The notes: generated by a model from the sequence alone, not told the origin. Positions 9,839 through 57,654 are shown, counted from the first letter of the whole stretch. The stretch is 59,453 nucleotides of DNA, filler included, from Basidiobolus ranarum (GCA_040143965.1; 6 parts of 6 records of this genome joined end to end with filler, not necessarily neighbours in it); one strand, 5' to 3'. Program-made: numbers and translations.

Positions 9839-9938
9839 NNNNNNNNNNNNNNNNNNNNNNNNNNNNNNNNNNNNNNNNNNNNTTAATTAATTAANNNNNN
9901 NNNNNNNNNNNNNNNNNNNNNNNNNNNNNNNNNNNNNN
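9839..9938. other. Artificial contig linker (N run + TTAATTAATTAA + N run)
   Basis: Six-frame stop linker, 100 nt, repeated identically five times in the window. Confidence 0.99.
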
Positions 9939-11617: not shown

Positions 11618-11690
11618 CAACCCAACCGGGGGTCGAACCCGGGGCCTTCCGCTTAGGAGGCGGACGCTCTATCCACTGAGCTACAGGGCC
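11618..11690 (-). tRNA. tRNA-Arg(CCT)
   Basis: GGCCCTGTAGCTCAGTGGATAGAGCG TCCGC-CTCCTAA-GCGGA AGGCC CCGGG-TTCGACC-CCCGG TTGGGTTG; D, anticodon and T arms pair, acceptor stem weak (3 GU, 1 UU). Confidence 0.85.
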
Positions 11691-11701
11691 TTACATGTTG
11701 T

Positions 11702-11979
11702 TGTTACAAAATTGGATTATCAGACAAAAGCGATGGCAATTTTGGAGACAACATAATGTCTCAATCAACTCAATATTTCGTACACATATAAAGCATAAGC
11801 AAACCTTGACCTTCACCCAGTTTCATATCTACACCTTTCCCACACGTCTCGCAATCACCGAAACAAGAAAAGAAATGCAAATATCTCCAGAACTACTGGA
11901 CGAAAAGTTAATCAGTTAAGTAGGAATCAGTGAATCAAGTCCCGAAATTGCACTCACCTCAGGAACCAGCCTCAATATC
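11702..11979 (+). mobile_element. Solo-LTR-like element, internally deleted copy, upstream of tRNA-Arg
   Basis: Starts TGTTAC and aligns by eye with the reverse complement of 16112-16606 (shared AATTGGATTA, GCGATGGCAA, GACCTTCACC, ATATCTCCAGAACT, GGAATCAGTGAATCAAGTCCCGAAATTG); lacks about 220 bp of the middle. 3' end approximate. Confidence 0.75.
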
Positions 11980-12415
11980 TATGGGATAAGAATCATAAAA
12001 CAAGATGTAATATACAATAAATTAGTCCATCGCTTGGATTGTTTAAGATACAGAAAAGTGGTTCTTGTTTCACAGAAGTATAATTTCGAAAAATAATTGC
12101 TATTCACATTTGTGTTTTCCTTGGGATGCTCATCTTTTTAATTAGAGAATGAATGTAGAAACTTTATCGTCCATTGCAGTAGGAGTTCTCTTTACTTAAT
12201 AGTAATCCATTAATTATATTACAATGATCCACTCTTATTCGGCATGCAAGCAAGGACATACTGAGAAAGAACAAGAATAATATTTCAAGCGTGATGTCCA
12301 AAAGATCGGTAGTTTAACCTTCAACGGTTATGATATCATAGTATGTTTGAACTTAGAATTCATGTTGGCTACTGTTAACCTCTTCAGTTAAATTGTTCAA
12401 AATTTTCTAACTTCA

Positions 12416-12787
12416 ATGAAATCTAGGGTCTCTCAACCATTCACCTATATTGAATGGACTGATCTACAGAGTAGGCTTTAAGCTCTCACTGAACCCTGTG
12501 CTTGTCCTCTTCAGTTTCTCTTCGACAATGGACAATGTACTGATTGGGCTGACGCTCGCTATTATCAACTTACTTGCTACCACACCTAATGATAAGCAAA
12601 TTCTAAGGCTTGGCCTGAGAGCACTATGAACACAAGTGAATCATGTGTTCCATCCATCGTGGTCATCCAACCTGACTCTCAAGGCTGTGACTCTTATGAA
12701 TAGATTGCCGTTGTGAAGAGTATCAACATTGGCAGTAGTGTATGTACCAGTGACTGGAGCTACAGTATTGATGGGTCTCAGATATAA
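12416..12787 (+). pseudogene. CHAP-domain (peptidoglycan amidase/peptidase) pseudogene, bacterial type
   Basis: Single frame FDNGQCTDWADARYYQLTCYHT***ANSKAW..VPSIVVIQPDSQGCDSYE*IAVVKSINIGSSVCTSDWSY follows the CHAP pattern GQCT.W..RY.QL..NA..W..SIVV.QP..QG..YGHVAVVE.IN.DGSV.TS.WN; multiple stops and the catalytic His position is a stop. Confidence 0.75.
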
Positions 12788-13595
12788 TTTACACCCATTT
12801 CTTCAAGTGTTGGTAAACATGTATAGAATGACAAATAACAATAAATAAAGTTTATATATTGGAGATTGCGCTCCTGAAACTCCAAGTCTAAAGTTTAAAG
12901 TTATTAACTTGATGCTATGGGGAGTTTTTTTTACATGTAATTTACAATTTTTTGAATTATATTAAACCTGGTTGACAAGTATTTGTCATAGTTGGTATAG
13001 AAACGGTATCTTAAAAATGTACACATAATGATTGATATAGTAATATCTCTTAGCATAGACTTTCAAATAGCCTATTCATATCCATTTTAGATAGTTAGTC
13101 ACTCTATATAGCTTTTTAGGGCTAGGGAATACTAATAAGGTCATTGAGTATGTGATATAGGGAGAAAAGTAAGTATGTTACTACTCATATACATTGCTTA
13201 CAATCAAATCACATATACTATATTACTGATCATGTATCTATTAGTTGAAAGAGGTTACTTCTATGCATACCAGAGCCTTTTACATACAAAGTTATACAGA
13301 TTCATAAAATATATCTTTCTGCTGTGTACGATCTCACGTCGTCTATAGCTTATTTTAAAATTGCTGTTATTGCTTACTTTACATAATATTAATAGAACAG
13401 TATATTTGTCACATACCAAATACCCATTTTCAATATCTGCTATTTCCTTCATTTTCAAATCAATGTGTAGCTTTAATCCTTTTCCAATTCACATAAGATC
13501 CTATTCTTTTTGATACCAGTTGTTTCATTTAATTAACTTTAATTCCTGAAATATCGCTATGGCGTATACCAAACACTCCGAGTAAGTAAAATCCA

Positions 13596-14855
13596 TTATT
13601 GATTGGAGTTGAAGACCAAAAGATTGGGAGTGGTGCCCTTCAATCCTGTGATCACATTCTTGGTGGCCTTGGAGACAAGTGCAGCATATACTTGAGCAGG
13701 GGTGCTCAAACCACCTTGGGATAGGTACAATGCGGCAACACCAGCAACATGCGGACTGGCCATGCTGGTACCAGAGATCTTCTTGCTAGCTGAGGTACCT
13801 CCGATCCATGCCGAGGTGATGTCTTGGCCGGGTGCTGAAAGTTTGACACATTTACCGTAGTTGCTGAAGCTGGCAGCACCGTCAGTGATGGTGGTGGCTC
13901 CAACTGCGAAAGCTTGTCCAGCATTGGCTGGGGAGACATTGCAGGCATCTTGACTCTCGTTACCAGCGGCAACAATGAATGTGACTCCAGCCTTGACTGC
14001 GGCATCAACTGCTTGCTTCAAGGCCTCACTGTTACCACCACCAAGTGACATGTTGGCAACACTCTTGCGACCACTGGTCTTGGCTTGCTGAGCTACCCAG
14101 TTGACTCCTGAGATGACACCGGAGGTAGTACCGCTGCCACTTCCACTAAGCACCTTGACACCAATGAGCTTGGCCTTCTTGGCTACACCGTACCTGGTTC
14201 CTCCCACTGTTCCAGAGACGTGAGTTCCGTGACCATTGAGATCCTCAGTGGCCTCACCACTGACGAAACTAACGGGAAGGGTGGCTCTACCTCCAAAGTC
14301 GGAATGCTTGACATTGATTCCAGTGTCGATGATATACACATCAACTCCTTCACCCGCTGAGTTAGGGTAGCTGTATGGAGCATTGGCATTCAATGCCCGC
14401 TGAGAGACTCTAGGAAGACCCCAACTTGGTGGGCTGTTCTGAACTCCAGAGACAGTGAACACTTGCTCAGCCTCCACATACTCGACATCACCATTAGTCT
14501 TGAGCTCACTGACAAGGGCCTGGCTGAGTATACCAGCATAAGCATTAAAGTTCTCCAAGGCGAACTTGCTCTTGAGCTCGTTTTTCAGAGCATTATTACC
14601 ACTGCGACCACGGTTGTATTGGTCAAGCTTTGTCTTTAAAAATTGATCCACTAAAATTAGCGTATATACGTATTAGCACTACATCTCATGTTGCTACTGT
14701 TATGACATCACACTCATACCTTTGTTCGAGTCAGCTCCTTCTTTGATCTTGACAATGTAGCGGTTAGAAACATCAACGATTTGTGCTTCAGAGATTGGTA
14801 TAGCCAAAAGCACAGCAATTAGTGAGCCGATAGTAAGAATGCGAACGTTGACCAT
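13596..14855 (-). CDS. Secreted subtilisin-like serine protease (S8A, proteinase K-like) with I9 propeptide; exons 14855-14720 and 14650-13596
   Basis: Signal peptide MVNVRILTIGSLIAVLLAIPISEA, propeptide RYIVKIK, catalytic motifs YIIDTG, HGTHVSG, AAGN, SGTSMASPHVAG. Confidence 0.97.
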
Positions 14856-16028
14856 TTTTTTTCAAGACCAAAGTGATGGGACTGAAGTAGTTAATGAGAT
14901 ATTGTCCAACTTTCGTCATATTTTATATGTTTTGATACAACTGATATCTAGATATCGAAAGTGCATTTAAAGTAGTCTGCAAGTCATTTGACCAGTTCCA
15001 AACTTCACTTCCCTGTTGGGTTCTATTCATGAAGAGTAACTGGGCATTGTTCTCAGGCAAAAGCCAGTCACTATAGCAACATTTCACACGCAGCTTATTG
15101 TTACACAAAGTTTCGTTATCCATTGCAGCCTCTTCTCACCAAATAACTGGTTTCTTCTGATGAAAAGCATTCGTGTATTCCAACTTGGTTATTGATAAAG
15201 TAATAAAAAGGTTTAAAGTAGTTTTTATAAAAAATATCAAGTTAATTCTATTTAATCCCATATATTTCCCCTAAATCCTAATGTTCGGGTTCATCATTTC
15301 TATATTAGTAGTTTACGAAAAATGCAAATGAAACTACTCCCGACATTCAATTGTCTTGGTATCTTCCCAGGTAAGTTATAACTTCATGTTTCGATGGAAT
15401 ATCGATGCGTTATATTCCTCTCATGATATAATCCAGCAACATAGTCATCTTAGAAAATCAATTACGTATTTTGGAAAGTAACATTGAACTTTATCCACAT
15501 GAGCATTGTTACCGATGCACTCACCTGGTATAGTTTGAATACTAATTTTGCCTGTTTGGTGAGCATGCTTTTGCCTTTGAGAGTCAAAAGTCCTATCTCG
15601 TATCAAATAGGGAGGCAAGACGCACACATACCTCTGTATTTGTCTCACAAGTGACTAATAGTACATGAGCAAAACCGTCGGAACTGGATATGTTTGAATT
15701 TACTATGAGAGGTTTGTACTCGGAATTTCATGTGATGAGATGTATTGTCATCTACATTTCATAATATTAGGATGTGTGAGGCTCAACCACAACCTGAACT
15801 GAGTACTCAGTATTTTTTATTATATATACGGTTAATCTAGCCCTACATACCTAGTGAAAATGATCTAATTAGCAACTTTGCTTACGGATAAACATAGATA
15901 TATCTTTAGAAAATGCTTGACATCAAATTTCATATAGAATGTAACAAATGGTCTTCTGCTGTATTTTTTTCAACTATCCTGGGAAACCTCAACAAAATGT
16001 GTCTAAAATGTCAGTATATAAAAATAAT

Positions 16029-16100
16029 GGGCTCAACCGGGAATTGAACCCGGGACCTCCACGACCCGAACGAGGAATCATACGACTAGACCATTGAGCC
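16029..16100 (-). tRNA. tRNA-Pro(CGG), possibly degenerate
   Basis: GGCTCAA/TTGAGCC acceptor stem, anticodon loop TTCGGGT, T arm GTTCAATT. Anticodon stem has a U-U mismatch and the D-loop reads AGTCGT instead of AGTGGT. Confidence 0.85.
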
Positions 16101-16111
16101 CTAGTTATCAG

Positions 16112-16606
16112 TGTATTTATCCTGGTTTTTCAGGTGAGTACAATTTCGGGACTTGATTCACTGATTCCAACTACTACTGATTAACTTTATTTCGATTGTG
16201 CTATTATTACAGGGTTGATCAGGGGAAAATTGAGTGGCATTCCTGCAGGATTTGGGAGTGTGGTAAATTCGAAATTTGTAAACAAAGATGACAACTCACT
16301 TCTAATGTCTTTTAACTTTTGTTTGCGATGTCGGTTCATTTTGAAACTTGTATTTATATTAAAATAAAAGTAGGTAAATATTTTTCTAAAGTTTGGTAAT
16401 GTTTCATGGGGCAGTTCTGGAGATATGCGCATTTTCATGACGGTTTTGGTGATTGTGAGGCGTGTAGGAAAGGTAGAGACATGAAACTTGGTGAAGGTCG
16501 AGGTTTGGTTATTAGCTATATGTGTATAAAATATTGAGAGGATTAAGAAATTATATTGTCTTTGAATTTGCCATCGCTTTTTATTCAGTAATCCAATTTC
16601 GTAACA
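16112..16606 (-). mobile_element. Solo-LTR-like element (495 bp) upstream of tRNA-Pro
   Basis: Minus strand begins TGTTAC and ends AATACA (TG..CA), with an internal TATAAATA and a downstream AATAAA in LTR order; homologous to 11702-11979. No target-site duplication recognisable. Confidence 0.78.
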
Positions 16607-17125
16607 AATATGTTGTCAAACTCGTTGCTCTATTTCGATTAAACCAATTGCGAACTCTAAATATTACTTCTCTTGATTATAATCAGGCTCTTTAAACGTA
16701 TATTCACTAAATATTCAAGTGTAAATAACTGGAAAAATATTTTGTAATAAAACCATTCATGTAGTGATTTACAGCACGCAATAGTATTAACATTTGTAAT
16801 GAATAAAGCAAGAATGGATGATGTTTACTAAGTTATCAATTATTAAGCTATGAAGTGATATCTTAATACCCGACTTCAATATCCATTTAGCTTCTTTCTT
16901 GTTTTCTGAATGCAAAAAATCGCTCAGATTTGTGAACAATAACATCTCTCTTTTTGACCAAGAACATTATCAAATAATAAAATGAGATCATATCAACTGA
17001 AAGCAATGTATGTTATCATTATAGTGTTCTCATATTTTATAGACTCAGATGACTAACTTTACTGATTAGACTTCCGAATAGGTTCAACCAAATAACAAAA
17101 TGTCTTTGGCGCGAAAATACAATGA

Positions 17126-17207
17126 TGATGAGAGTGGGGTTCGAACCCACGCCTCCGAAGAGACTGCGACCTGAACGCAGCGCCTTAGACCACTCGGCCA
17201 TCTCACC
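17126..17207 (-). tRNA. tRNA-Leu(CAG)
   Basis: GGTGAGATGGCCGAGTGGTCTAAGGCG CTGCG-TTCAGGT-CGCAG TCTCTTCGGAGGC GTGGGTTCGAACCCCAC TCTCATCA; full cloverleaf with long variable arm. Confidence 0.97.
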
Positions 17208-18714
17208 TTTCACGATCGACAGAGGACTAATGCCAATCTCGACAAATTATTAGGTATGCAATTACGGAAAAAGAATCCAAAATATATTTGAATATTTTCA
17301 ATGTGTGTACATCATGACAGAAAGATAGCTTGGGTTTCTATCTGATGTAACACTCAGTGTGTGCATCTATATTACCCCATTGCCAAAAGACTTAAAGGAT
17401 TGAAATGTGGAAATACTAAAATATCATGTTGATCACTTATTAACGCAATTATGTAACAATTTCTAAGTTGTTAACTGAAGATTTCTCGGAATCTATGACA
17501 GAAGTGCCTAATCTTGCGGTGTTTGCTCTTTACTGCAATACTAATTTAAAGTAAGATTTATTGTGAGACTCTCTGGCTAGTCGAGAATGAACAAAAACAG
17601 GAGGGGAATTGTATGAGCTATCGAGGTCGTCCAAACAGCACTGAATCATGAATTAGGTAAATGTACTGGATGTTATTGGAAAGTCTAGAAATATACTACA
17701 CATATCGCAGCGGCGATTACTAATTATAAGAATTGATGAAGTGAAACAGTTTGGTGAATAATGGATATCAGAAATGCTTACAAAGCAGCATCCTTTCAAG
17801 ATATAATAGTTGGAGAATTATGGGAAAATACCCTTCATTAATTGCTTTTGTATCCGTTTAGCTGACTCTCAAAGCAACATTTACCAACGAAAAAACCTCT
17901 AATCAGCATTTGTCAATGCAGAAGATATTATTACATATTTCTCGAATACAGAGTAAATTAGAGTGCCGAACAGAATCATCATCGTATTAAAGTAAAATCA
18001 GTTAAACCAGATTTATATATAATTACATTGTTTATCTAAGCAGATCAGTTCTGTTACCTCGATCTCTAACCTATTCAAAAGTAAGCGACACTTACATCCA
18101 CAAACAGCGGCTCATTATTTTCTGGTAGGGGCTTAGATTTACCGACTTCGCTAGCGGTGGCTTCAGGTGGGATTTTCTATTTGGGGATTAGGGTTAGGGC
18201 TAAGACTGTAGTATACTGGAATATATGGTGGCTCGATCAGTCTTTCAGAACCGCTGGAATCCTTTCAAAGATCGGAGAAAAAAAGTACCTAATTTGGTGT
18301 ACTTCAGTGATCAGGATCATTAATAAGGAGATTAACCAAAAGCAGTGTATTAAACTGACGAATGTAAAAGATATTCAAAAATCATTAAAGGGTGGCGCTT
18401 CAAGCGATATTCTAAATTTGTCGATAATTATGTGGAGACATCGGCTTCATTCAAAAACAAGAAACTGAGTCGAAAACATCTGAATGAGATGAGAACGTAC
18501 AGGAAGGGTAAATGCTTCAACCAACGATGCTTCCTCCAATAGTTCAATCAGAAGAATTGTCTAGTCCCTCGGTGCAGATTAACTATATGAACTTGTTCTG
18601 AATTATCAACTCCGACATTTAGTGTTTCATCAAGTATAAGTAGTGGCACCTGCACCTACACTAAAACTCAATTCAATACTTCTCCACTCTTTCGAAGAAC
18701 AATTAACATTTACC

Positions 18715-19767: not shown

Positions 19768-19867
19768 NNNNNNNNNNNNNNNNNNNNNNNNNNNNNNNNN
19801 NNNNNNNNNNNTTAATTAATTAANNNNNNNNNNNNNNNNNNNNNNNNNNNNNNNNNNNNNNNNNNNN
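19768..19867. other. Artificial contig linker
   Basis: N run + TTAATTAATTAA + N run. Confidence 0.99.
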
Positions 19868-20031
19868 CTAGCACAAGTTTGAAAAATCTATATATCTGAG
19901 AACTTCTAAGTTGGTAAAAATATTCCAAGTAAATTCCAATTGAGAATAATTGATAATATCTTAGAGAGTTATAAGATAGCTAAGTACTAAGCTATATATG
20001 ACTATACAGGTGCTTAGGCAATGCTAATTTC
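19868..20031 (+). repeat. Dispersed repeat family A (DNA-transposon end-like), partial copy
   Basis: Aligns with 35238-35401 (CTAGCACAAGTTT.AAAAATCTATATATCT..AACTTCTAAGTTGGT...TAGGCAATGCTAATTTC). Confidence 0.85.
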
Positions 20032-21599
20032 AACATCAAATTGCTACCAGACAGCACTTTATTGGAAAAATCTAATAGCAATTTGGACTTTGCCTCTACT
20101 TCAGGTTTGAAAACGGGCATAAGACTACACTTAAAGGCTTACATATTTTCTAATCACAATTGAACTCACCAATGCATTTCAAAATAATGACATTCTTAAT
20201 TAATATTTGTGATATTTAAGTAAGCTTGTACTAATGACAATTCAGGATCACTTCACTCCTATTAGGTTTACCATACAGCAGAGTATGACTCTTCATATTA
20301 CCTTGGATAGCATCATTGAACTTCAAGTAAAGTTTATTGATCTATTGTTTTGATGATATTATGTTAGCTACGTACACAACTTCTTCTCTACAAACATTAT
20401 GATATAAATATTTAGCACTTGGATAAAGTAGATTTTGTATCGCAAATAATTTAGAGTGTGATTGTTGAAAACAGTGATTTATGGAATAATACTCTCAATG
20501 GAAAGCAAACCTAGGATCCACACGATACCTAGTTTCCATATCTCATCATAGATGATAATGATCAATACTACCATTTGACATGTCCTGATTACATAATTCG
20601 GGGCAGTGTTCCTCTCAGTAGATCCTAGGATGGAGTATTGCTTATGATATGGTAGTTTCAAGTAATTTTGGAGAGTCCTTGCTATTATAATACTTGTACT
20701 ATTGGTTTTAGAAGATACATTTCTTCTCGTAACTGTGATTCAACCTAATCGCTAGTGAGCAACTACCATGGTATTGTATCATTCATGGCGACTGTCATCC
20801 ATTCCAAAATTCTTCCAAAAGTTAAATACCTGTTGATTAACATCTCTATATATTTTTCTCTGACATTTGTGCTCATCATGCATACGACATAATAGAAGAT
20901 ATTTGTTTTGTGGCAAATGGTGCTTTACCACAATATATAAATTCCTAGAAAATGCACTAAATAAGGACCTTTATTCTTACAAATAGTACACGTAAAACGG
21001 GCAGAAAGCTTTCTCGGTGGTCAAAGGGCTTTCAGACTATTGAAAAATATTATGTAGCAGCTACATAAGACTACTTAGCTTAATGTGAACAAAGAGAGAA
21101 TCCTCCTCGAGATTAAGGAACATTTGCAAGAACTGTATCGCAACAATAAAAAGATTTGGAGATTCATTAGGAAAGATACTATGAGGATATAAGAAAGAGT
21201 ATACTGTGACTAAAAAAATCACAGGACAAATATGTGACAAGAGCAGGAATATTGTACTTGGTATTTGCACGTTGAAATATCGAGTGTAGTACTAATCAGT
21301 CAAATTTTCACAATTTCAAGTTCTTTGAGAATGCCAAACTTCTATATTATAGTTATATATGCACCCCAACATATTCCATGATATTTAATGAAGCTGTGTT
21401 CTGATGGCTACTCTTCCACATTTACATAAACGAGATCTGTATAAGATGAATATCAATTGTAAATCGCACCGTGTTTCTAATTATTCTCATAAACTCGACT
21501 AGTTCCCTGCTATTTTCCACAAATTAATTGAGTACCTAAAATCCTCCATGATCGTGGACTCCAGTAACTTGACTAAGATATTTCAATAGAATAAGTAAT

Positions 21600-29695: not shown

Positions 29696-29795
29696 NNNNN
29701 NNNNNNNNNNNNNNNNNNNNNNNNNNNNNNNNNNNNNNNTTAATTAATTAANNNNNNNNNNNNNNNNNNNNNNNNNNNNNNNNNNNNNNNNNNNN
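29696..29795. other. Artificial contig linker
   Basis: N run + TTAATTAATTAA + N run. Confidence 0.99.
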
Positions 29796-29889: not shown

Positions 29890-30808
29890 CAGTTTTGAAC
29901 GCAACATGTTTTTTACACTAAAATTTTGCATTCACAGCTATATTTCTAAATTCTACATTATATAAAAGCTGAAACTTTGACATGATGGCTTTACTCATGG
30001 TCAGTACATGTTCCATATAAACCTTGCTGGCTAGCATCAAGTAAATCTATCACAATCATTAAATATTGTATAACCGTTTATCACAATACCAAAAAAAAGT
30101 TTGACATATTAAAATTTTTCTTATTGACAGCTTTTTTTACTTTGTATATAGAAAGAAAAAGCTGCTTTTTAGCCACCAATGCATGCAAACAGACTTTTCA
30201 AACAATAATCTTCCTAATTATGACAGCTTGGCAGATAACATACATGCTGATTAAATGGAATGAGATAGCACCAAAATCTTTGAAATTGGAAGCACTGTAA
30301 TCTCATGGTAACAAATCTAGGATGATTAAGACTTAGGAATATGAGTCTGACATGTACAGGAATACTAAATATTATGTGTAGCTCAATGGCTGAATAATCA
30401 ATAATGTAGTATTGAAGAATTGAAATTTAGTTCTGTATTCAAGTAATTACTTCCCCCATTAACCTACTCTAGCATAACAAATATAGTCCACCAAGCTGTC
30501 AAAGATATATCATGGAATAAAACTCCTTCTGGTGTATATATAGTTGCGGCCATAAGGAATGCAGAACATAGCCCCTTCAGGTTTTATTTCAGATCCAGTA
30601 ATTCTTTTTCACCAACATTTAGGAAATAATGAAGATGCCATGAGAAAATATTGCTTCAAAGCCATTCTTAATGCATTAATGACTGAAGAGCAGAATTTTC
30701 TCAACATAAATGAAGTCCAAATAGTTGTCATTATGAAAAATTACAATATATTGAACTTTTTTGAAAATGCAAAATTTTAGTGTAAAAAACATGTTGCGCT
30801 CAAAACTG
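29890..30808. mobile_element. Non-autonomous DNA transposon-like element bounded by 43-bp inverted repeats
   Basis: CAGTTTTGAACGCAACATGTTTTTTACACTAAAATTTTGCATT (29890-29932) vs the reverse complement of 30766-30808, one mismatch; interior CpG-poor with no intact ORF; no TSD seen. Confidence 0.75.
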
Positions 30809-31004
30809 ATTCACTCACTGCACTGATTAAATGTATGTATGATATTATCAAAATTACTGAATCACCTCCATAACATACAGGACTGTTATTTGGACTCTGC
30901 TTAAGCAATGTGACAAATATCACATTAAAGCATGAAGTAAATGACGAGATATTGTCATTTGAAAAATGTATGCAAAAAAATGAATCAATTTTGAGCGATA
31001 GTGT
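30797..31004. mobile_element. Short MITE-like element (family B) with 17-bp inverted repeat
   Basis: CGCTCAAAACTGATTCA (30797-30813) vs TGAATCAATTTTGAGCG (30981-30997). Right part GTCATTTGAAAAATGTATGCAA..TGAATCA recurs at about 36466-36520. Confidence 0.55.
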
Positions 31005-32038
31005 ATATCTTTTCTCGAAGCCGGTTTATTAACCCTAAGGATTAGGGCCAAACTCAACTCTAACTCGCGAACTTGATTGTTATCTCCTACCTAGCTAGAT
31101 TAGAGGTATAATAATCTCTACTTTGTAGACAGTCAAGTCTAACCGCTTCAGCGTGGGAATAGGTTTACCACGTATGCAATGTATTCATTGATAATGATCT
31201 ATGGGGCGGTCGGTCCTCCATATGTTGTATCGTTCTATTCATCTAGTATAAACAAGCACATCCTTAAATGCATTAAGATGCTGGAACAACTCCCATGCAA
31301 CTAATAATATGCGTGGTGACTGCGGTGGTGTTTCCAATATTTAATCGAACATAACTTGAGCTTGAATGAACTCACTTGGCTGAGCGGAAGTTCCGTACTT
31401 TCTGGCTTACTCCGAATAAACTTTAATTGTACCCAAGCCTGTTGTTCCATACACTGATTTTACTAGTTAGTTTAGACAAAGATACGTAGAGCTGGCACTT
31501 TGGGCAATTTGTATTACTTTTTCTGTATTGTATTTACATGTCTAATATCGGATGAGATCATTCGATAGAGGTCACAGATATTAATTCGCGTAGAAAAAGT
31601 ATCTCTACCTTATCTAGTCACTGTACTGCCAATATTCAACAATCCGCAGAGAAACCGGAAAACCGAAGAGAAAATTACTCACCGCAAATTGACAGCCCAC
31701 TTATGCGAATCATCTGCGTCCAATCAAGGTCCGGCTTCTATACGTTTGAGCTGGATGATGATGTAGAGTGCTGAGATTTGAAAATGATTTACTCCAATGG
31801 TGACAACTCGGTTTCACTCAAGATCATTCCCGATTTACCACAATACCTCAACTGCAAGAGTTCCTGAAAGCTTTGCCAAATGATACCACTTGTTTTGACT
31901 AAAAGGTGCAGCTCCCATTACTGCAGCCTGTGGCCAATCAAATGCTTCAATTTGTCCCGATTTTCAAAATATTTGGCCATATAACATGAGTATCGGTGCA
32001 AGGTTGTGTCCGCACAATACAACCACTTTCTCAAAGCT

Positions 32039-34202
32039 ATGAAAATATATACACCGTTGAAGACTATCCTCTTGGGATGTGTTCTTTCTCCTTCCCTTTT
32101 GGCTGCACCATCAGTTCAAGATTTTGGGAAGATTACGATCATCTCTGATAATGATTTGAATCCCGCAATTAAACCTCCAAATGCAATCTTAGTCTCCAAG
32201 CCGATCAACGCTACACAGGCTAGTCAAGCATGTAACTTGCTTGGTGAGAAGTTATCGCCTGTTGCTACCTGGAATGAAGGGCTCGTGCGTCAATTAACAT
32301 ATTACCAAAGAGACACGCCTAGCGAATGGTTCTGGGCTGAGCATGCCGAAAACTGCACAGCATTCAATCCAGTATCAGGGCAAAGTCAAAATGAAGCATG
32401 TGATACTGAACTCTTGGTTCTCTGTACCAACTCTGCAAATGCTTCCAACTACCTTTATCCTTTTGACACCTCAAAGCAGATCGTTGTAAATACTACTGTT
32501 GGTCAAATTCAAGGCTATAGAGACAATTTATCTTTTCGATTCCTTGGGTGAGTACTTTTATTTCAAGTCGGATTAAACATAAAAAGCAACTAGACTAAAT
32601 GTGAGCCTACATATCATGATGCTATCTATAGAATTCCATATGCTTCACAACCGCAACGCTTCTACCCATCGACACCCCTAGAGCGATTACCAAATGTAAA
32701 TGATACTACAAGCTTTGACGCCACAAAGTTTGGCCCAGCATGCCCTCAGCCTGATCTTGGTCCCTCAATAGCTGCCGAGGATTGCTTGAATCTCAACGTT
32801 TACACAAGTGACATAGGAAATGAAGTGAAACTCCGTCCTGTGATGGTGTACATTTATGGAGGAGCTTTTGTGACGGGCAGTAACTCCATTCCTATCTATG
32901 ATGGAGGGCACATTGTGTCGCGCGGTAATGTGGTAATGGTCTCCATCAATTACCGATTGGGTGCTCTTGGATTCCTGTACTATCCTCAACTGGGCATCAA
33001 AGGAAACCAAGGTATTCTCGATCAGCAATTAGCCATTAAATGGGTCAAGGATAACATTGCAAGTTTCGGCGGAGACCCGAATAAGATCACCATATTTGGG
33101 GAGTCTGCTGGAGCGCAAAGTGTTCGGGCCCATATTGTTTCACCGGCAATGAAAGGTAATTTTCAGGCTGCAATCATGCAATCTGATCCGGTCGGAGTAC
33201 CATTCTTTTCGCAAAAGGTCGCCTCCAATGCTGGAGATGCGATACTGAAGGTACTAAAGTGTCAAGATTATTCATGCCTTCAGAGGGCGAACTTGACCGA
33301 CATTGTGGAAATTCAATCCGCTCTTTTACCGATCATCGGTCAGGATGTTCCACTTCCACTTGAATTGTTTGAGCCGGTGATTGATGGGGAGGTTCTACCT
33401 TACCAATCTGACAAGGCGATCTCCTCTGGAAAGTTCAATAAGGTACCTTTGATGATTGGAACTACCAGAGATGAATATGGGACTTTCTTATCTGAGCAAC
33501 AACAAAATATCTCCAATACTCAAAGTGCATTTACAAGTAGTGTGACTATAATTTTTGGTGCTAACGCGACTCAGGCTGTTAACTCATCAAGCCTTTACCA
33601 AGTAAACAGTTCTGATCCCCAATCCGCACTTGACCTACTGGCTCGCTTCGGCACTGCGTACTTATGGACCTGTCCAAACCGTTACTTTTTTCATCTTTTC
33701 TCTCCCCAAATTCCCACCTATGCTTTTCAATTTGACAAGGTAACGTAACTATTTCCTTTCAATGCTTGGAGAAAAGTGAACTAATGCTTCGTAATATCAG
33801 GGTTATTTTCCTCAGACTTTGGGGTTTAGTGGGGGCTACTGTCTTCAGGATGATAAAGTCTGCCATGGTAGTGACCTCATGTTGGTTTTCGCCTCTGCTA
33901 TTCAGGCCAATATAACCTCTCTTCCTGCAGACACCATCGAGTTGTTCCAGAATACGTTGGATAGATGGACTGCATTTGCTCGATCAGTTGGGAATCCAAA
34001 CCCCACGGGATCATATATTAATAGCACTGGATACGGAAGAGAAACAACAGCCAAGTGGCCTCTATACACAAACAATAGCACGGAAGTATTGCTAATTAGT
34101 ACACCAAATAGTACTACGACAGCTAATACACTCGAGAAAGAGAATTGTGATTTTATCGAAGAAAAGTTGGGTTACCTCTTCATGAGTCCTCGGTGGCAGT
34201 AG
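32039..34202 (+). CDS. Secreted type-B carboxylesterase/lipase (COesterase); exons 32039-32547, 32632-33739, 33801-34202
   Basis: Signal peptide; FRFLG/IPYA, EDCLNLNVY, VMVYIYGGAF, NYRLGALGFL, FGGDPNKITIFGESAG (Ser), GTTRDE (Glu), VCHGSDL (His). Confidence 0.95.
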
Positions 34203-35050: not shown

Positions 35051-35401
35051 TATATGTTTGGAGTATTTTGGGAGTTTGTTGGAAGTGGTTTGGAGAATTT
35101 GAAGAATTGGGGGCTTTTTCTTGTTGATATGTGGACCAGAAAGTTGACACTTATGGTTTTATCAAGATATATACAAAAAAAACGTAAAGAATGTATTAAG
35201 CAAGGTCCCAGGAACTTGTGTGCAAAGTTTGAGGCATCTAGCACAAGTTTAAAAAATCTATATATCTCCAAACTTCTAAGTTGGTGTCAATGTTCGAAGT
35301 AAAATCCGATTGAGAATAGTGAGTGATAATTTTGTGGAATATAGAATAACTAAATACTAAGCTAAATATGACTATATAGGTGTTTAGGCAATGCTAATTT
35401 C
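35051..35401 (+). repeat. Dispersed repeat family A
   Basis: Homologous to 19868-20031 and, inverted, to 57421-57654. Adjacent minus-strand relic KSRVTFDAWNTIN (about 35440-35480) weakly recalls hAT transposase T.DAWTS. Confidence 0.8.
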
Positions 35402-37869
35402 CACAAATTGTTGCATATCTGATTGATCTAAAGAAGATGTTAATAGTATTCCATGCATCAAAAGTGACTCTTGATTTATTTTATCCATCAAAACTCTCTA
35501 AATTTACTATAAGTTCATGAACTTAGACATTCTCCTCACAAACCCAAGTTGTAGAAACATTTTTTGCTTCTGTTGTAGTGGCAAATAAGCATTAAAATGT
35601 GATCTATTGAACAGTGTCACTAATTGCTTTAGCTGATTCCTTATAATGTCATAAGATGGGATGAGTCTGGATCAAATATAGTGGAACTTTTGAGCCTCAC
35701 ACTGCTGAGATAAGTGATGCTTCTGTACAAGGCTTTGGTATGCACAGGAATACAACATAATCACTTTTAAGTGATAGACTTCTGATGAGTAATATAGTAC
35801 TTGTTGTTTGATATGGAGCAATATATAGCTGTAGTGCTAAACATATTTTCCTTCGTGTATCACACAAAAAATGCTCTTACTGATTTTCCCCAACTCCAAA
35901 AGACACAGAGAGCACTTAGCTATCCAGAATAAATTTAACGTAGGCTTTATAAAGCTCTGTTGTAGATTATCTGATGGATGGAACAAGCAAAAGCACACTT
36001 TTAAAATGCTATTTTACCCTACATATAGCAAATACTAGTGTATAATCAACACATTATGCATATTTCTTTGGTGATATATGTCACTCTATTAAGAAAGAGC
36101 CATTAAAAAAATTGTTGTAGAACTAGTGTCATAAGAAAAAGAGTTCGAAAAGCTTGGTGAACAATGAGAAGACTTGTCAAGATTTAAAGACCTAATACCC
36201 CAAAACTCAGCTCTGTGACAGAAACCTAGTCATGTTCGAACACGATATATGACCATTTTGATAATGGAGAGAGCCAAATATTTTAACTGGCAAAAAAATG
36301 TTTCAAACAATGTGAGCTGATTCACTGCTAGTGCTAAACATAAATTCCTATAGTTTCATAAATAGCGGTAGAGCTGCTTTCATACTATCAAGGACTAATT
36401 TTTGGTCTTCAATTCAGCCATGTGACAAATATAAAGTTGAATAATGGAGCGAATGCAGAGATATAGTCATTTGAAAAATGTATGCAATAAAGTGAATCAG
36501 TTATGGGCATTGGTGTAGATATTGATTGGAAATCAAGGAAAACGCGAACTAGGATATTCTCCAAATATACTAGGAGGTCAGGTGAGACAATGTAGAATAT
36601 TAGAAGAGTGATATCATATCCACACTGTTCGAGTGTCCAAGCAACGCAGCGCTTCATTTTCTGTATCAGTCTAAATAGTGACTTTGAAATCAATGAAACC
36701 GGTGAAAGTCATGTATTTCTTCTAACCATCCTAAACACTAGCAATCCATCGCAAATAGTCCAAAAAGCAATAAAGCTTGTATGCGCTTGAAATAGATACT
36801 TGTATATGGCATAGCAATGGAGATGAATACTCACAAATACGCTGAACATGATGTAAGAATACTGAGGTGATTTAATCTAGTATCACAACTACTAGTTCAT
36901 CTCGCAATCATAGGTAATTTCTTTACTGAAGTGTGATCTGTTAAACATTTAGCTAATGCATTTTGATTATCATTAAAAATGGCAGGTGTTGAATGTTGTG
37001 ATTGGTCTCTCGTGTTCTTGAATTAACGTTTATTATGATATCAACATGGTACAGATATTGGCAGATAGCAGTTATAGTATGGTGCATATATTGAGTTTGA
37101 ACATGCGCATGGAGAGTGATAAAATATAAAGAGTAGAAATTAAATGAGCTATAGTAGCTCCTTAACTTAAGTTTCCAGTATGAAACCTGTCTACAAATTA
37201 CAACCCATAAATCATTTACAAGCATAAGTTAGATTCCAATCTCCTGTAAACTAGCCAAGCTGTCTACTTACGTTTCTGCCAAGTTTGAAAGCTAGACAGC
37301 ACCTAGCTAGTTAGCCAGTAGATAATCTATGCTATTAGTAAATATAAACAATTTTACGTAGACACAATAGCTGCTTAATTTTGTATAACCAGAACTTCTT
37401 CATAACCACAAGTTGTCAGCAACATACGTCACTCATCATTGCGTTTAAAGAGAATACCAGTATACCCGCCATTAAGATAAGCCAGAGGCATCAACGATCA
37501 GAGAAACCACAGCAGTTCCCCCATAGATTTATGCCTGAGTTGTATACTGCCACTAACCCCCCCCACATGCTCAACCATCTCTCTTAGTTACCTTTTCGTT
37601 GATTTATATTCTAATCACCAGAGAACGGCGAAATCGAAAAAAGATAGAACTTCGAAGCTCTACGTGAAAGAGCTCTTAAAGGGTAAGATGAATTTTCAAA
37701 AGGTTCAGGAAGCTCTAGCAATCTAAGGCAACTACATGTTGCTTTCCTTGCTATGCCTGAATGCCAAGCGATCCTAACCAAGCAAGCTTCTATGCTTCCT
37801 ATGCAGTATCTTCACTAGTAAACACCCATTTCTAGGCCATACCTGCCTTGGGCCCAGTTATGTGTATTA

Positions 37870-39617: not shown

Positions 39618-39717
39618 NNNNNNNNNNNNNNNNNNNNNNNNNNNNNNNNNNNNNNNNNNNNTTAATTAATTAANNNNNNNNNNNNNNNNNNNNNNNNNNN
39701 NNNNNNNNNNNNNNNNN
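39618..39717. other. Artificial contig linker
   Basis: N run + TTAATTAATTAA + N run. Confidence 0.99.
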
Positions 39718-49535: not shown

Positions 49536-49635
49536 NNNNNNNNNNNNNNNNNNNNNNNNNNNNNNNNNNNNNNNNNNNNTTAATTAATTAANNNNNNNNN
49601 NNNNNNNNNNNNNNNNNNNNNNNNNNNNNNNNNNN
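49536..49635. other. Artificial contig linker
   Basis: N run + TTAATTAATTAA + N run. Confidence 0.99.
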
Positions 49636-57420: not shown

Positions 57421-57654
57421 CCTAAAGTTTGAAGATATATAGATTTTAATAACATGCCCTAGAAGCCCCAAACTTTGCGCGTGTTCCTAGGACCTTCTTT
57501 AACATATTCTACACGTTTGTTTGTCTACATCTTGACAATACTATAAATGTCAACTGAATACTCAATAAATCACAAAGTGAAACCACCAATTCTTCTAGTT
57601 CTCCAAATCACTTCCAAAAAACTCGCAAAATACTTCAACAGTAGAACCACCCTA
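57421..57654 (-). repeat. Dispersed repeat family A, inverted copy; terminus TAGGGTGG (hAT-like)
   Basis: Reverse complement aligns with 35055-35280 (GTTGACA, TCAAGAT, AAGGTCC.AGGAAC, GCAAAGTTTG.GGC.TCTAG, AAAATCTATATATCT). Confidence 0.75.

Follow-up and report, generated by a model that had tools for sequence, protein, structure and literature searches.

Two diverged repeats in Basidiobolus ranarum (phylum Basidiobolomycota) each lie directly upstream of a tRNA gene. Did they come to be there by chance, by the duplication of a larger segment, or by the insertion of a mobile element that selects its target? The stretch examined comprises six separate contigs of ~9.8 kb each, which are joined by filler into the 59,453 nucleotides that we refer to as the window. 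The genes and repeats concerned are the following, with positions counted from the first letter of the window.

11618 to 11690, minus strand: tRNA-Arg(CCT), found by ARAGORN and Rfam (RF00005, 58.9 bits); its 5' end, 11690, faces copy 1
16029 to 16100, minus strand: tRNA-Pro(CGG), Rfam, 49.4 bits; copy 2 points its 3' end toward 16100, the 5' end of the gene
17126 to 17207, minus strand: tRNA-Leu(CAG), ARAGORN and Rfam; third tRNA gene of the cluster and an unoccupied site for comparison
11702 to 11979, plus strand: copy 1 of the repeat, the shorter form, 278 nt; starts with TGTTAC and ends in ATATC, with no CA; its 5' end faces tRNA-Arg
16112 to 16606, minus strand: copy 2 of the repeat, the longer form, 495 nt; starts with TGTTAC and ends in ATACA; its 3' end faces tRNA-Pro

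The limits given for tRNA-Arg(CCT) and tRNA-Leu(CAG) are the same in ARAGORN and Rfam. For tRNA-Pro(CGG), ARAGORN places the ends at 16028 and 16101 and Rfam at 16029 and 16100. The acceptor stem, GGCTCAA/TTGAGCC, as read from the sequence, agrees with the Rfam ends, the same limits as had been used in an earlier note on this DNA. Both of the tRNA genes that adjoin repeats are intact and of full Rfam model length, and the repeats lie outside them.

The two repeats, which had been described in the earlier note as diverged homologues, are indeed related. Two blastn matches link them, 11701-11894 to 16607-16413 (79.5% over 195 columns, E 2e-44) and 11904-11977 to 16188-16114 (85.3% over 75 columns, E 3e-18), and a global alignment of the copies contains 230 matches, 42 mismatches (22 transitions and 20 transversions) and 229 gap columns, with 230 of the 272 aligned bases identical. 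A two-copy profile recovered both copies with nhmmer (E 9e-146 and 3e-85). Homology begins at 11701/16607 (TTGTTAC), its last supported base is 11977/16114, and it is limited to the repeat, ending where the repeat ends. Within the copies, one segment that is not shared and one block that is perfectly conserved can be delimited.

16189 to 16412, minus strand: segment of ~224 nt present in copy 2 only, defined by blastn and the global alignment; contains the TATAAATA motif
11923 to 11950, plus strand: identical 28-nt block in copy 1, ~30 nt from the 3' end
16141 to 16168, minus strand: the same 28-nt block in copy 2

The 28-nt block has two matches in the window, a number that was reached by none of 100 shuffles. 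The ~224-nt difference may reflect either a loss from copy 1 or a gain by copy 2. Together with this large indel, the difference of ~15% between the copies implies that they are old or that they belong to separate subfamilies. Blastn with a word size of 7 and nhmmer --max with the two-copy profile detected only the two known copies in the 59-kb window (nhmmer reported one additional noise match, E 7.7), so the earlier caveat that there are just two holds at this scale. A third, partial copy immediately upstream of copy 2, considered on the basis of GACAACATA and nearby matches, was rejected because shuffling alone produced its local alignment score in 107 of 300 and 49 of 300 trials. A 24-nt part of the common block gave no match in each of the metagenome, genome and viral contig collections, and a 33-column degenerate pattern spanning both copies found nothing in the metagenome contig collection. 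A protein search with an accidental 142-aa ORF within copy 2 returned one candidate, which was not significant.

The distance from each repeat to its tRNA gene is given by a short spacer.

11691 to 11701, no strand assigned: spacer TTACATGTTGT, 11 nt, from the tRNA-Arg 5' end to the TG of copy 1; 10 nt when the T at 11701, common to both copies, is counted with the repeat
16101 to 16111, no strand assigned: spacer CTGATAACTAG (written for the minus strand), 11 nt, from the CA end of copy 2 to tRNA-Pro; 13 nt if measured from 16114

The spacing had previously been put at exactly 11 bp in both cases. This is correct when TG (11702) and CA (16112) mark the termini; otherwise, by the limits of homology, which fix the termini only to within 1-3 nt, tRNA-Arg is separated from its repeat by 10-11 nt and tRNA-Pro by 11-13 nt. 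Each copy has one terminus at a distance of 10-13 nt upstream from the 5' end of a tRNA, the tRNAs are different and opposite ends of the repeat are presented to them. Both copies therefore show placement of the Pol III type, at most ~30 bp upstream of a tRNA gene in either orientation. When two repeats are placed at random in a 9.8-kb contig, the probability that both start upstream of tRNA 5' ends at a distance of at most 13 nt is P = 1.65e-5, and with a limit of 50 nt the same model gives P = 2.6e-4. Chance falls far short of explaining why both copies adjoin tRNA 5' ends. These values make it most improbable that no targeting was involved and that we are dealing with an ordinary dispersed repeat of which two decayed copies ended up by chance in a stretch rich in tRNA genes and repeats. 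In favor of such an accident are the small number of copies (two), the uncertainty of 1-3 nt in their termini and the presence of six further dispersed repeat pairs in a self-comparison of the contigs, from which it follows that repeats are common there. However, the repeat meets the tRNA genes with its two natural ends and not at internal break points.

A segmental duplication is excluded, since the tRNAs differ (Arg-CCT and Pro-CGG) and the copies are oppositely oriented, and homology ends at the repeat ends. The earlier note had preferred two targeted insertions to such a duplication, a preference that is supported by this exclusion and by the improbability of the double adjacency. The missing target-site duplication, the CA terminus present in one copy of two and the unconserved motifs, all considered below, tell against its identification of the repeats as LTRs. 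The sequence upstream of tRNA-Leu(CAG) is free of the repeat by blastn and nhmmer, leaving one of the three tRNA genes unoccupied.

We conclude that the repeats are probably solo LTRs, or remnants of them, that derive from two independent insertions by a position-specific LTR retrotransposon family of B. ranarum. Equal spacing with either end toward the tRNA would be the expected trace of a position-specific integrase. By analogy with Ty3 and Tj1, the Pol III initiation machinery (TFIIIB/TFIIIC) on the tRNA gene would anchor the integrase complex of the element, and the cDNA would be inserted at the transcription start, ~10 nt ahead of the mature 5' end, or immediately upstream of that start. 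The site of strand transfer would be set by the host complex, in which case the same spacing is expected no matter which end of the element faces the tRNA. The coding part may have been lost afterwards by LTR-LTR recombination, followed by decay. The sharp 5' boundary, TGTTAC in both copies, and the occurrence of both orientations favor an integrase-type insertion over target-primed reverse transcription. The homology, the opposite orientations, the spacing of 10-13 nt at two different tRNA genes and the improbability of this placement by chance are demonstrated, whereas the LTR nature of the repeat, a Ty3/gypsy-type retrotransposon as its parent and guidance by Pol III factors are inferred. 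Counting against this explanation are the recovery of two copies only in 59 kb, the vacancy at one of three tRNAs and the ~15% divergence with its large indel.

To what extent do the repeats look like LTRs? Their lengths of 278 and 495 nt fall within the LTR size range. TG is found at the start of both copies and CA at the end of copy 2 alone. Copy 2 has TATAAATA at position 249 and AATAAA at positions 22 and 416; in copy 1, AATAAA is missing and a TATAAA lies at position 86. No conserved TATA or AATAAA signal is common to the two copies, and each such signal is expected ~0.3 times per 500 nt. Thus the signals listed in the earlier note (TG..CA, TATA and AATAAA) are present in the longer copy, but the motifs are not conserved in copy 1, which also lacks the CA. 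A target-site duplication, likewise reported earlier as not visible, was found in neither copy, since no common k-mer of at least 3 nt abuts both ends, even with 5 nt of slack permitted; its absence could be explained by decay or by recombination between elements. Retroelement Pfam families are missing from the 150 longest stop-free ORFs of the window, 70 ORFs of at least 30 aa in the flanks gave no match to RT, integrase or gag families, and a domain scan of the ten neighbouring ORFs at E up to 1 yielded noise only. No PBS, PPT, gag or pol was found with the repeats in the window, which counts against the LTR reading. Rfam at E up to 5 revealed no RNA gene inside the repeats; apart from the three tRNAs it gave only noise, located elsewhere. 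The region between the copies contains an apparently whole subtilase gene (Peptidase_S8 and Inhibitor_I9).

The repeat might also be the end, or the whole, of a mobile element without LTRs that inserts just upstream of tRNA genes, such as a tyrosine-recombinase retroelement (DIRS/Ngaro type), a small non-autonomous element or an unknown DNA transposon. An element of this kind would account equally for the placement beside tRNA genes. Tyrosine-recombinase retroelements make no target duplication, as is seen in both copies, and no LTR-specific feature is conserved in the two. Still, we consider this origin rather unlikely. We know of no DIRS/Ngaro-type element, small non-autonomous element or DNA transposon that targets the region upstream of tRNA genes. 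The repeats have neither a poly(A) tail nor a tRNA-like head (Rfam, E up to 5), and they occur in both orientations to the tRNA, unlike the target-primed TRE elements. Table 1 of PMC5911963 contains no such case with tRNA-upstream targeting. Dada elements provide a parallel in being specific for small-RNA genes, including those for tRNA, but they are described as inserting within the RNA gene, without TIRs and with TSDs of 6-7 bp, whereas the tRNA genes in Basidiobolus are intact and the repeat is outside them.

A 7-mer with a length equal to that described for Dada duplications is present in the outer flanks of the two copies.

11695 to 11701, plus strand: ATGTTGT, directly adjoining copy 1 on its outer (5') side; left half of what may be an imperfect target duplication around the whole inverted pair
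16610 to 16616, plus strand: ATGTTGT, 3 nt past the outer (5') end of copy 2; right half of the possible duplication

If this is a target duplication, the inverted pair and the 4.1 kb between (11702 to ~16609) would form a single unit, an old non-autonomous DNA transposon with long TIRs and an imperfect 7-bp duplication, which landed beside tRNA-Arg by chance and which carries tRNA-Pro and the subtilase gene inside it. Both arms of the inverted pair point their TGTTAC end outward, ATGTTGT abuts the pair on the left and is 3 nt away from it on the right (a shared 7-mer within 5 nt has a null P of 1.0e-3), and this 7-mer is not over-represented in the window (16 matches compared with 13.6 expected). 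However, P becomes ~4e-3 after four flank comparisons, and with an offset of 3 nt the duplication is not a clean TSD. Two coincidences with tRNAs would also be needed, one placing the outer end 11 nt from Arg and the other the inner end 11-13 nt from Pro, each with a probability of ~0.004-0.005 by a rough estimate from the local tRNA density. No transposase is encoded between the arms, judged from the 150 window ORFs, the ten neighbouring ORFs and the 70 flank ORFs, the interior Peptidase_S8 and Inhibitor_I9 gene is apparently whole rather than a captured fragment, and the arms are just 80-85% identical, with the 224-nt indel between them. A single inverted unit is for these reasons distinctly improbable. 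An inversion between two LTRs was also considered as the origin of the outer 7-mer and was rejected because the geometry is wrong; the reverse complement would fall on the inner flank.

Two insertions by a position-specific LTR retrotransposon may be compared with systems in which targeting is established. According to Table 1 of PMC5911963, Ty3 is found 1-4 bp upstream of the tRNA start site, which is itself ~10 bp before the mature tRNA, Tj1 is found 1-10 bp upstream of the tRNA start site, and DGLT-A at 13-33 bp in either orientation. Ty3 of Saccharomyces cerevisiae, with its sigma LTR, resembles the Basidiobolus repeats in having LTR-sized solo copies directly upstream of tRNA genes, in either orientation and at a fixed distance that depends on the Pol III start site, and its integrase is described as contacting TFIIIB/TBP. 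It differs in its 5-bp TSD (found in neither Basidiobolus copy) and in its host (Saccharomycotina as opposed to Basidiobolomycota); the Basidiobolus spacing is 10-13 nt from the mature 5' end, and the likeness to sigma is one of placement, with no coding part. The closest match to 10-13 nt is Tj1 (Schizosaccharomyces japonicus, Ty3/gypsy), for which 13 of 17 sequenced de novo inserts are reported at most 12 bp upstream of tRNA genes. The targeting of Tj1 was proved experimentally with full-length elements, whereas Basidiobolus presents two decayed solo copies in another phylum. DGLT-A (Dictyostelium discoideum, Ty3/gypsy), whose targeting is attributed to RNase H and the TFIIIC subunit Tfc4, has an amoebozoan host and a wider, more distal range of distances.

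Mobile elements that choose a safe landing site have their textbook example in position-specific integration at Pol III genes. Accounts in PMC5006619 and PMC6101501 give adaptation to compact genomes as the usual explanation for it, the review table in PMC5911963 lists tRNA-targeting LTR elements from budding yeasts, fission yeasts and Dictyostelium only, and the genome of B. ranarum is called large in the title of Henk and Fisher 2012. The chances seem evenly balanced that B. ranarum possesses an LTR retrotransposon family that integrates at Pol III start sites with base-pair precision, which would be the first such outside ascomycete yeasts and dictyostelids. If it does, the phylogenetic range of Pol III targeting would be wider, the habit would have either arisen independently or been inherited as an old Ty3/gypsy trait, and targeting would occur in a non-compact genome, contrary to the view that it is an adaptation to gene-dense genomes. 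One could then ask whether Ty3, Tj1 and the Basidiobolus element share an ancestral targeting module, for example an integrase chromodomain contacting TFIIIB, or have converged. If the repeats are an ordinary dispersed repeat or a TIR element, they are of little interest. A literature search found no description of a Pol III-targeting element in Basidiobolus. The earlier statement that none is known from this lineage thus stands for the Basidiobolus literature but must be tempered by Rhizopus oryzae (Mucoromycota), in whose genome Ty3-like LTR elements are reported often to co-localise with tRNA genes (PMC2699053); the phylum is a different one, and the association, presented there with no spacing in bp, is at the scale of chromosome maps.

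The 59,453 bases comprise six pieces of about 9.8 kb, split by five spacers of the form N44-TTAATTAATTAA-N44. The pieces are separate small contigs, so that distances and synteny across the spacers have no meaning. Basidiobolus ranarum belongs to the phylum Basidiobolomycota. Both copies of the repeat considered here are confined to the second contig (9939-19767), which also carries the only three tRNA genes detected in the entire window by ARAGORN and Rfam, all on the minus strand.

Spacers, tRNA genes and repeat copies.
9839-9938, 19768-19867, 29696-29795, 39618-39717 and 49536-49635: spacers, N44-TTAATTAATTAA-N44
11618-11690, minus strand: tRNA-Arg(CCT), ARAGORN and Rfam
11702-11979, plus strand: copy 1, the shorter repeat
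16029-16100, minus strand: tRNA-Pro(CGG), Rfam ends (ARAGORN differs by one base at each end)
16112-16606, minus strand: copy 2, the longer repeat
17126-17207, minus strand: tRNA-Leu(CAG), ARAGORN and Rfam

For tRNA-Pro we prefer the Rfam ends, which are also those of the earlier note, because in the sequence GGCTCAA (16100-16094) pairs with TTGAGCC, which is followed by a discriminator base at 16029.

The proposal that copies 1 and 2 are homologous is borne out by two kinds of alignment. With blastn, 11701-11894 matches 16607-16413 (79.5% over 195 columns, E 2e-44) and 11904-11977 matches 16188-16114 (85.3% over 75 columns, E 3e-18), and this search gives no further match to the repeat in the window. 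A global alignment of 11702-11979 with the reverse complement of 16112-16606 yields 230 matches, 42 mismatches (22 transitions and 20 transversions) and 229 gap columns. A single stretch of about 224 nt found in copy 2 only (16189-16412) accounts for most of the gap columns. The copies are about 15% diverged and differ by a large indel. Both begin with TGTTAC, and the T preceding it is also common to them, while further upstream the sequences are unrelated. On the 3′ side homology is supported as far as 11977 in copy 1 and 16114 in copy 2, beyond which copy 2 ends in ..ATACA and copy 1 in ..ATATC. A block of 28 nt, some 30 nt short of the 3′ end, is identical in the two copies (11923-11950 and 16141-16168), in contrast to the 80-85% identity over the rest of the repeats. 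Rfam reports no RNA family at this block, which may have a function in the element, for instance as a site near the end of U5.

The 5′ end of copy 1 faces tRNA-Arg across a gap of 10-11 nt, and the 3′ end of copy 2 faces tRNA-Pro across 11-13 nt. It had been claimed that the gap is exactly 11 in both cases. This holds when the TG at 11702 and the CA at 16112 are taken as termini, which gives 11 and 11; since it depends on that choice, the figure is a reasonable convention and the measurements are the ranges just cited. When two repeats of these lengths were dropped at random in the contig 2,000,000 times with the three tRNA genes kept in place, the probability that both would start within 13 nt upstream of a tRNA 5′ end was 1.65e-5, and within 50 nt it was 2.6e-4. 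No copy of the repeat lies upstream of the third gene, tRNA-Leu(CAG). Segmental duplication, which the earlier note had also discounted, is ruled out because the tRNAs differ, the copies have opposite orientations and the homology ends where the repeats end. As a whole, the observation that had been made from the sequence is confirmed.

Is the repeat an LTR? The evidence is suggestive but not decisive. The sizes (278 and 495 nt) fit, the 5′ boundary is sharp and common to both copies, TG is present in both and CA in one of the two, and the copies occur in both orientations relative to the target. Neither a poly(A) tail nor a tRNA-like head was found in the repeats, and an Rfam search at E values up to 5 was empty inside them. 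As the earlier note had cautioned, there is no target-site duplication around either copy, and allowing 5 nt of slack reveals none. The TATA box and AATAAA reported in LTR order are indeed present in copy 2, where TATAAATA is found at position 249 and AATAAA at both 416 and 22, but the TATA sits inside the segment missing from copy 1, AATAAA is not conserved there, and DNA as AT-rich as this would be expected to contain each of the two hexamers about 0.3 times per 500 nt. Reverse transcriptase, integrase, RNase H and gag are absent from the 17 families matched by the 150 longest stop-free ORFs of the window, and no retroelement domain was detected in 70 flanking ORFs of at least 30 aa (11980-13600, 16607-17125 and 17208-18714). 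Both copies are for this reason regarded as solo, with no link to a coding element within the window. A stop-free frame of 142 aa spans most of copy 2 (16190-16615, minus strand). Neither relatives in the protein collection nor a Pfam family were found for it, and it is closed in copy 1, so we take it to be accidental.

The copies form an inverted pair with the TGTTAC end outward in both, and one could read the whole 4.9 kb as a single TIR transposon, old and non-autonomous, whose 7-bp duplication is imperfect. The duplication would be ATGTTGT, found directly against the left outer end (11695-11701) and again 3 nt past the right outer end (16610-16616). The window holds 16 matches to this heptamer, with 13.6 expected, so it is not overrepresented. 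When pairs of window positions are chosen at random, the probability that a 7-mer adjoining one of them turns up again no more than 5 nt from the other is 1.0e-3, or about 4e-3 given that four flank comparisons were made. However, the duplication does not sit in register, the arms enclose no transposase, and the interior holds a tRNA gene and an apparently complete subtilase gene (Peptidase_S8, 1.4e-40; Inhibitor_I9). Moreover, a TIR transposon would make both tRNA adjacencies accidental, whereas with two targeted insertions only the 7-mer need be so. For these reasons we consider the TIR transposon unlikely. An inversion between two LTRs was rejected, as it would not yield this pattern of outer flanks. 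By eye, the upstream flank of copy 2 seems to resemble the beginning of the repeat, but 107 of 300 and 49 of 300 shuffles score at least as high, and the likeness is not significant.

Two independent insertions of a position-specific LTR retrotransposon are plausible and provide the best available reading, one that we favor by a modest margin over its being wrong; two of the features that would define it, a target-site duplication and conserved LTR signals, are missing. Most likely, such an element would have integrated separately where Pol III starts transcription of tRNA-Arg and of tRNA-Pro. Its internal part would then have been lost through LTR-LTR recombination, and long decay would have produced the divergence and the indel. 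In published accounts of known systems the integration site is fixed by host factors: Ty3 integrase touches TFIIIB/TBP via its chromodomain, the RNase H of DGLT-A binds the TFIIIC subunit Tfc4, and 13 of 17 new inserts of Tj1, which has been assayed for retrotransposition in S. pombe as a heterologous host, lay within 12 bp upstream of tRNA genes. The distances from the start site tabulated in a review are 1-4 bp for Ty3 and 1-10 bp upstream for Tj1, with the Pol III start site about 10 bp before the mature tRNA (PMC5911963). The spacing seen here, 10-13 nt to the mature tRNA and the same in either orientation, is what such tethering to host factors would leave. By analogy, we infer that a comparable host factor may be used and that the element may be of the Ty3/gypsy type.

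Table 1 of that review lists Pol III-targeting LTR elements only from Saccharomyces, Candida albicans, Yarrowia, Schizosaccharomyces japonicus and Dictyostelium (PMC5911963). The earlier note knew of none in this fungal lineage. Among the titles and abstracts listed by full-text searches this stands, with no tRNA-associated element described for Basidiobolus or Zoopagomycota; in an Entomophthora genome preprint, the 12 occurrences of "tRNA" considered, of 17, all concern gene prediction. For zygomycete-grade fungi it needs qualifying: a passage of the Rhizopus oryzae genome paper states that Ty3-like LTR elements often co-localise with tRNA genes (PMC2699053), so that the link had already been published at a coarse scale. 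If confirmed, the present case would extend a known phenomenon to a new phylum, now with base-pair precision.

A profile built from the two copies (nhmmer --max) recovered only those copies within the 59 kb. Exact-pattern scans gave no hits in metagenome contigs (two patterns), prokaryotic genome contigs or viral contigs; neither these collections nor the protein collection searched with the 142-aa frame are expected to cover Basidiobolus DNA, and the results therefore say nothing about genomic copy number. Other dispersed repeats are present, with 35058-35901 matching 57425-57638, 19868-20035 and 13114-13284, and 30879-31011 matching 36391-36523. These families show 67-82% identity and are common to four of the six contigs, with one fragment 1.1 kb from copy 1. 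None adjoins a tRNA gene, and the overlapping ORFs that were scanned contain no protein domain. An inverted repeat of 43 nt (29890-29932 and 30766-30808; 98% complementary, arms 833 nt apart) resembles the termini of a small, roughly 0.9-kb TIR element, with no obvious target duplication in the flanks viewed. One of the 150 window ORFs, outside the 20 rescanned singly, weakly matches Transposase_21 (tnp2; E 4.7e-4). On the fourth contig, the ORF at 32594-33745 encodes a carboxylesterase; 96% of its length aligns at 100% identity with the hypothetical protein K7432_010818 [Basidiobolus ranarum]. Its nearest other relatives are about 40% identical and are mostly unnamed metagenome or bacterial "carboxylesterase/para-nitrobenzyl esterase" entries, a fungal one from Modicella being no closer. 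The gene may have come from bacteria.
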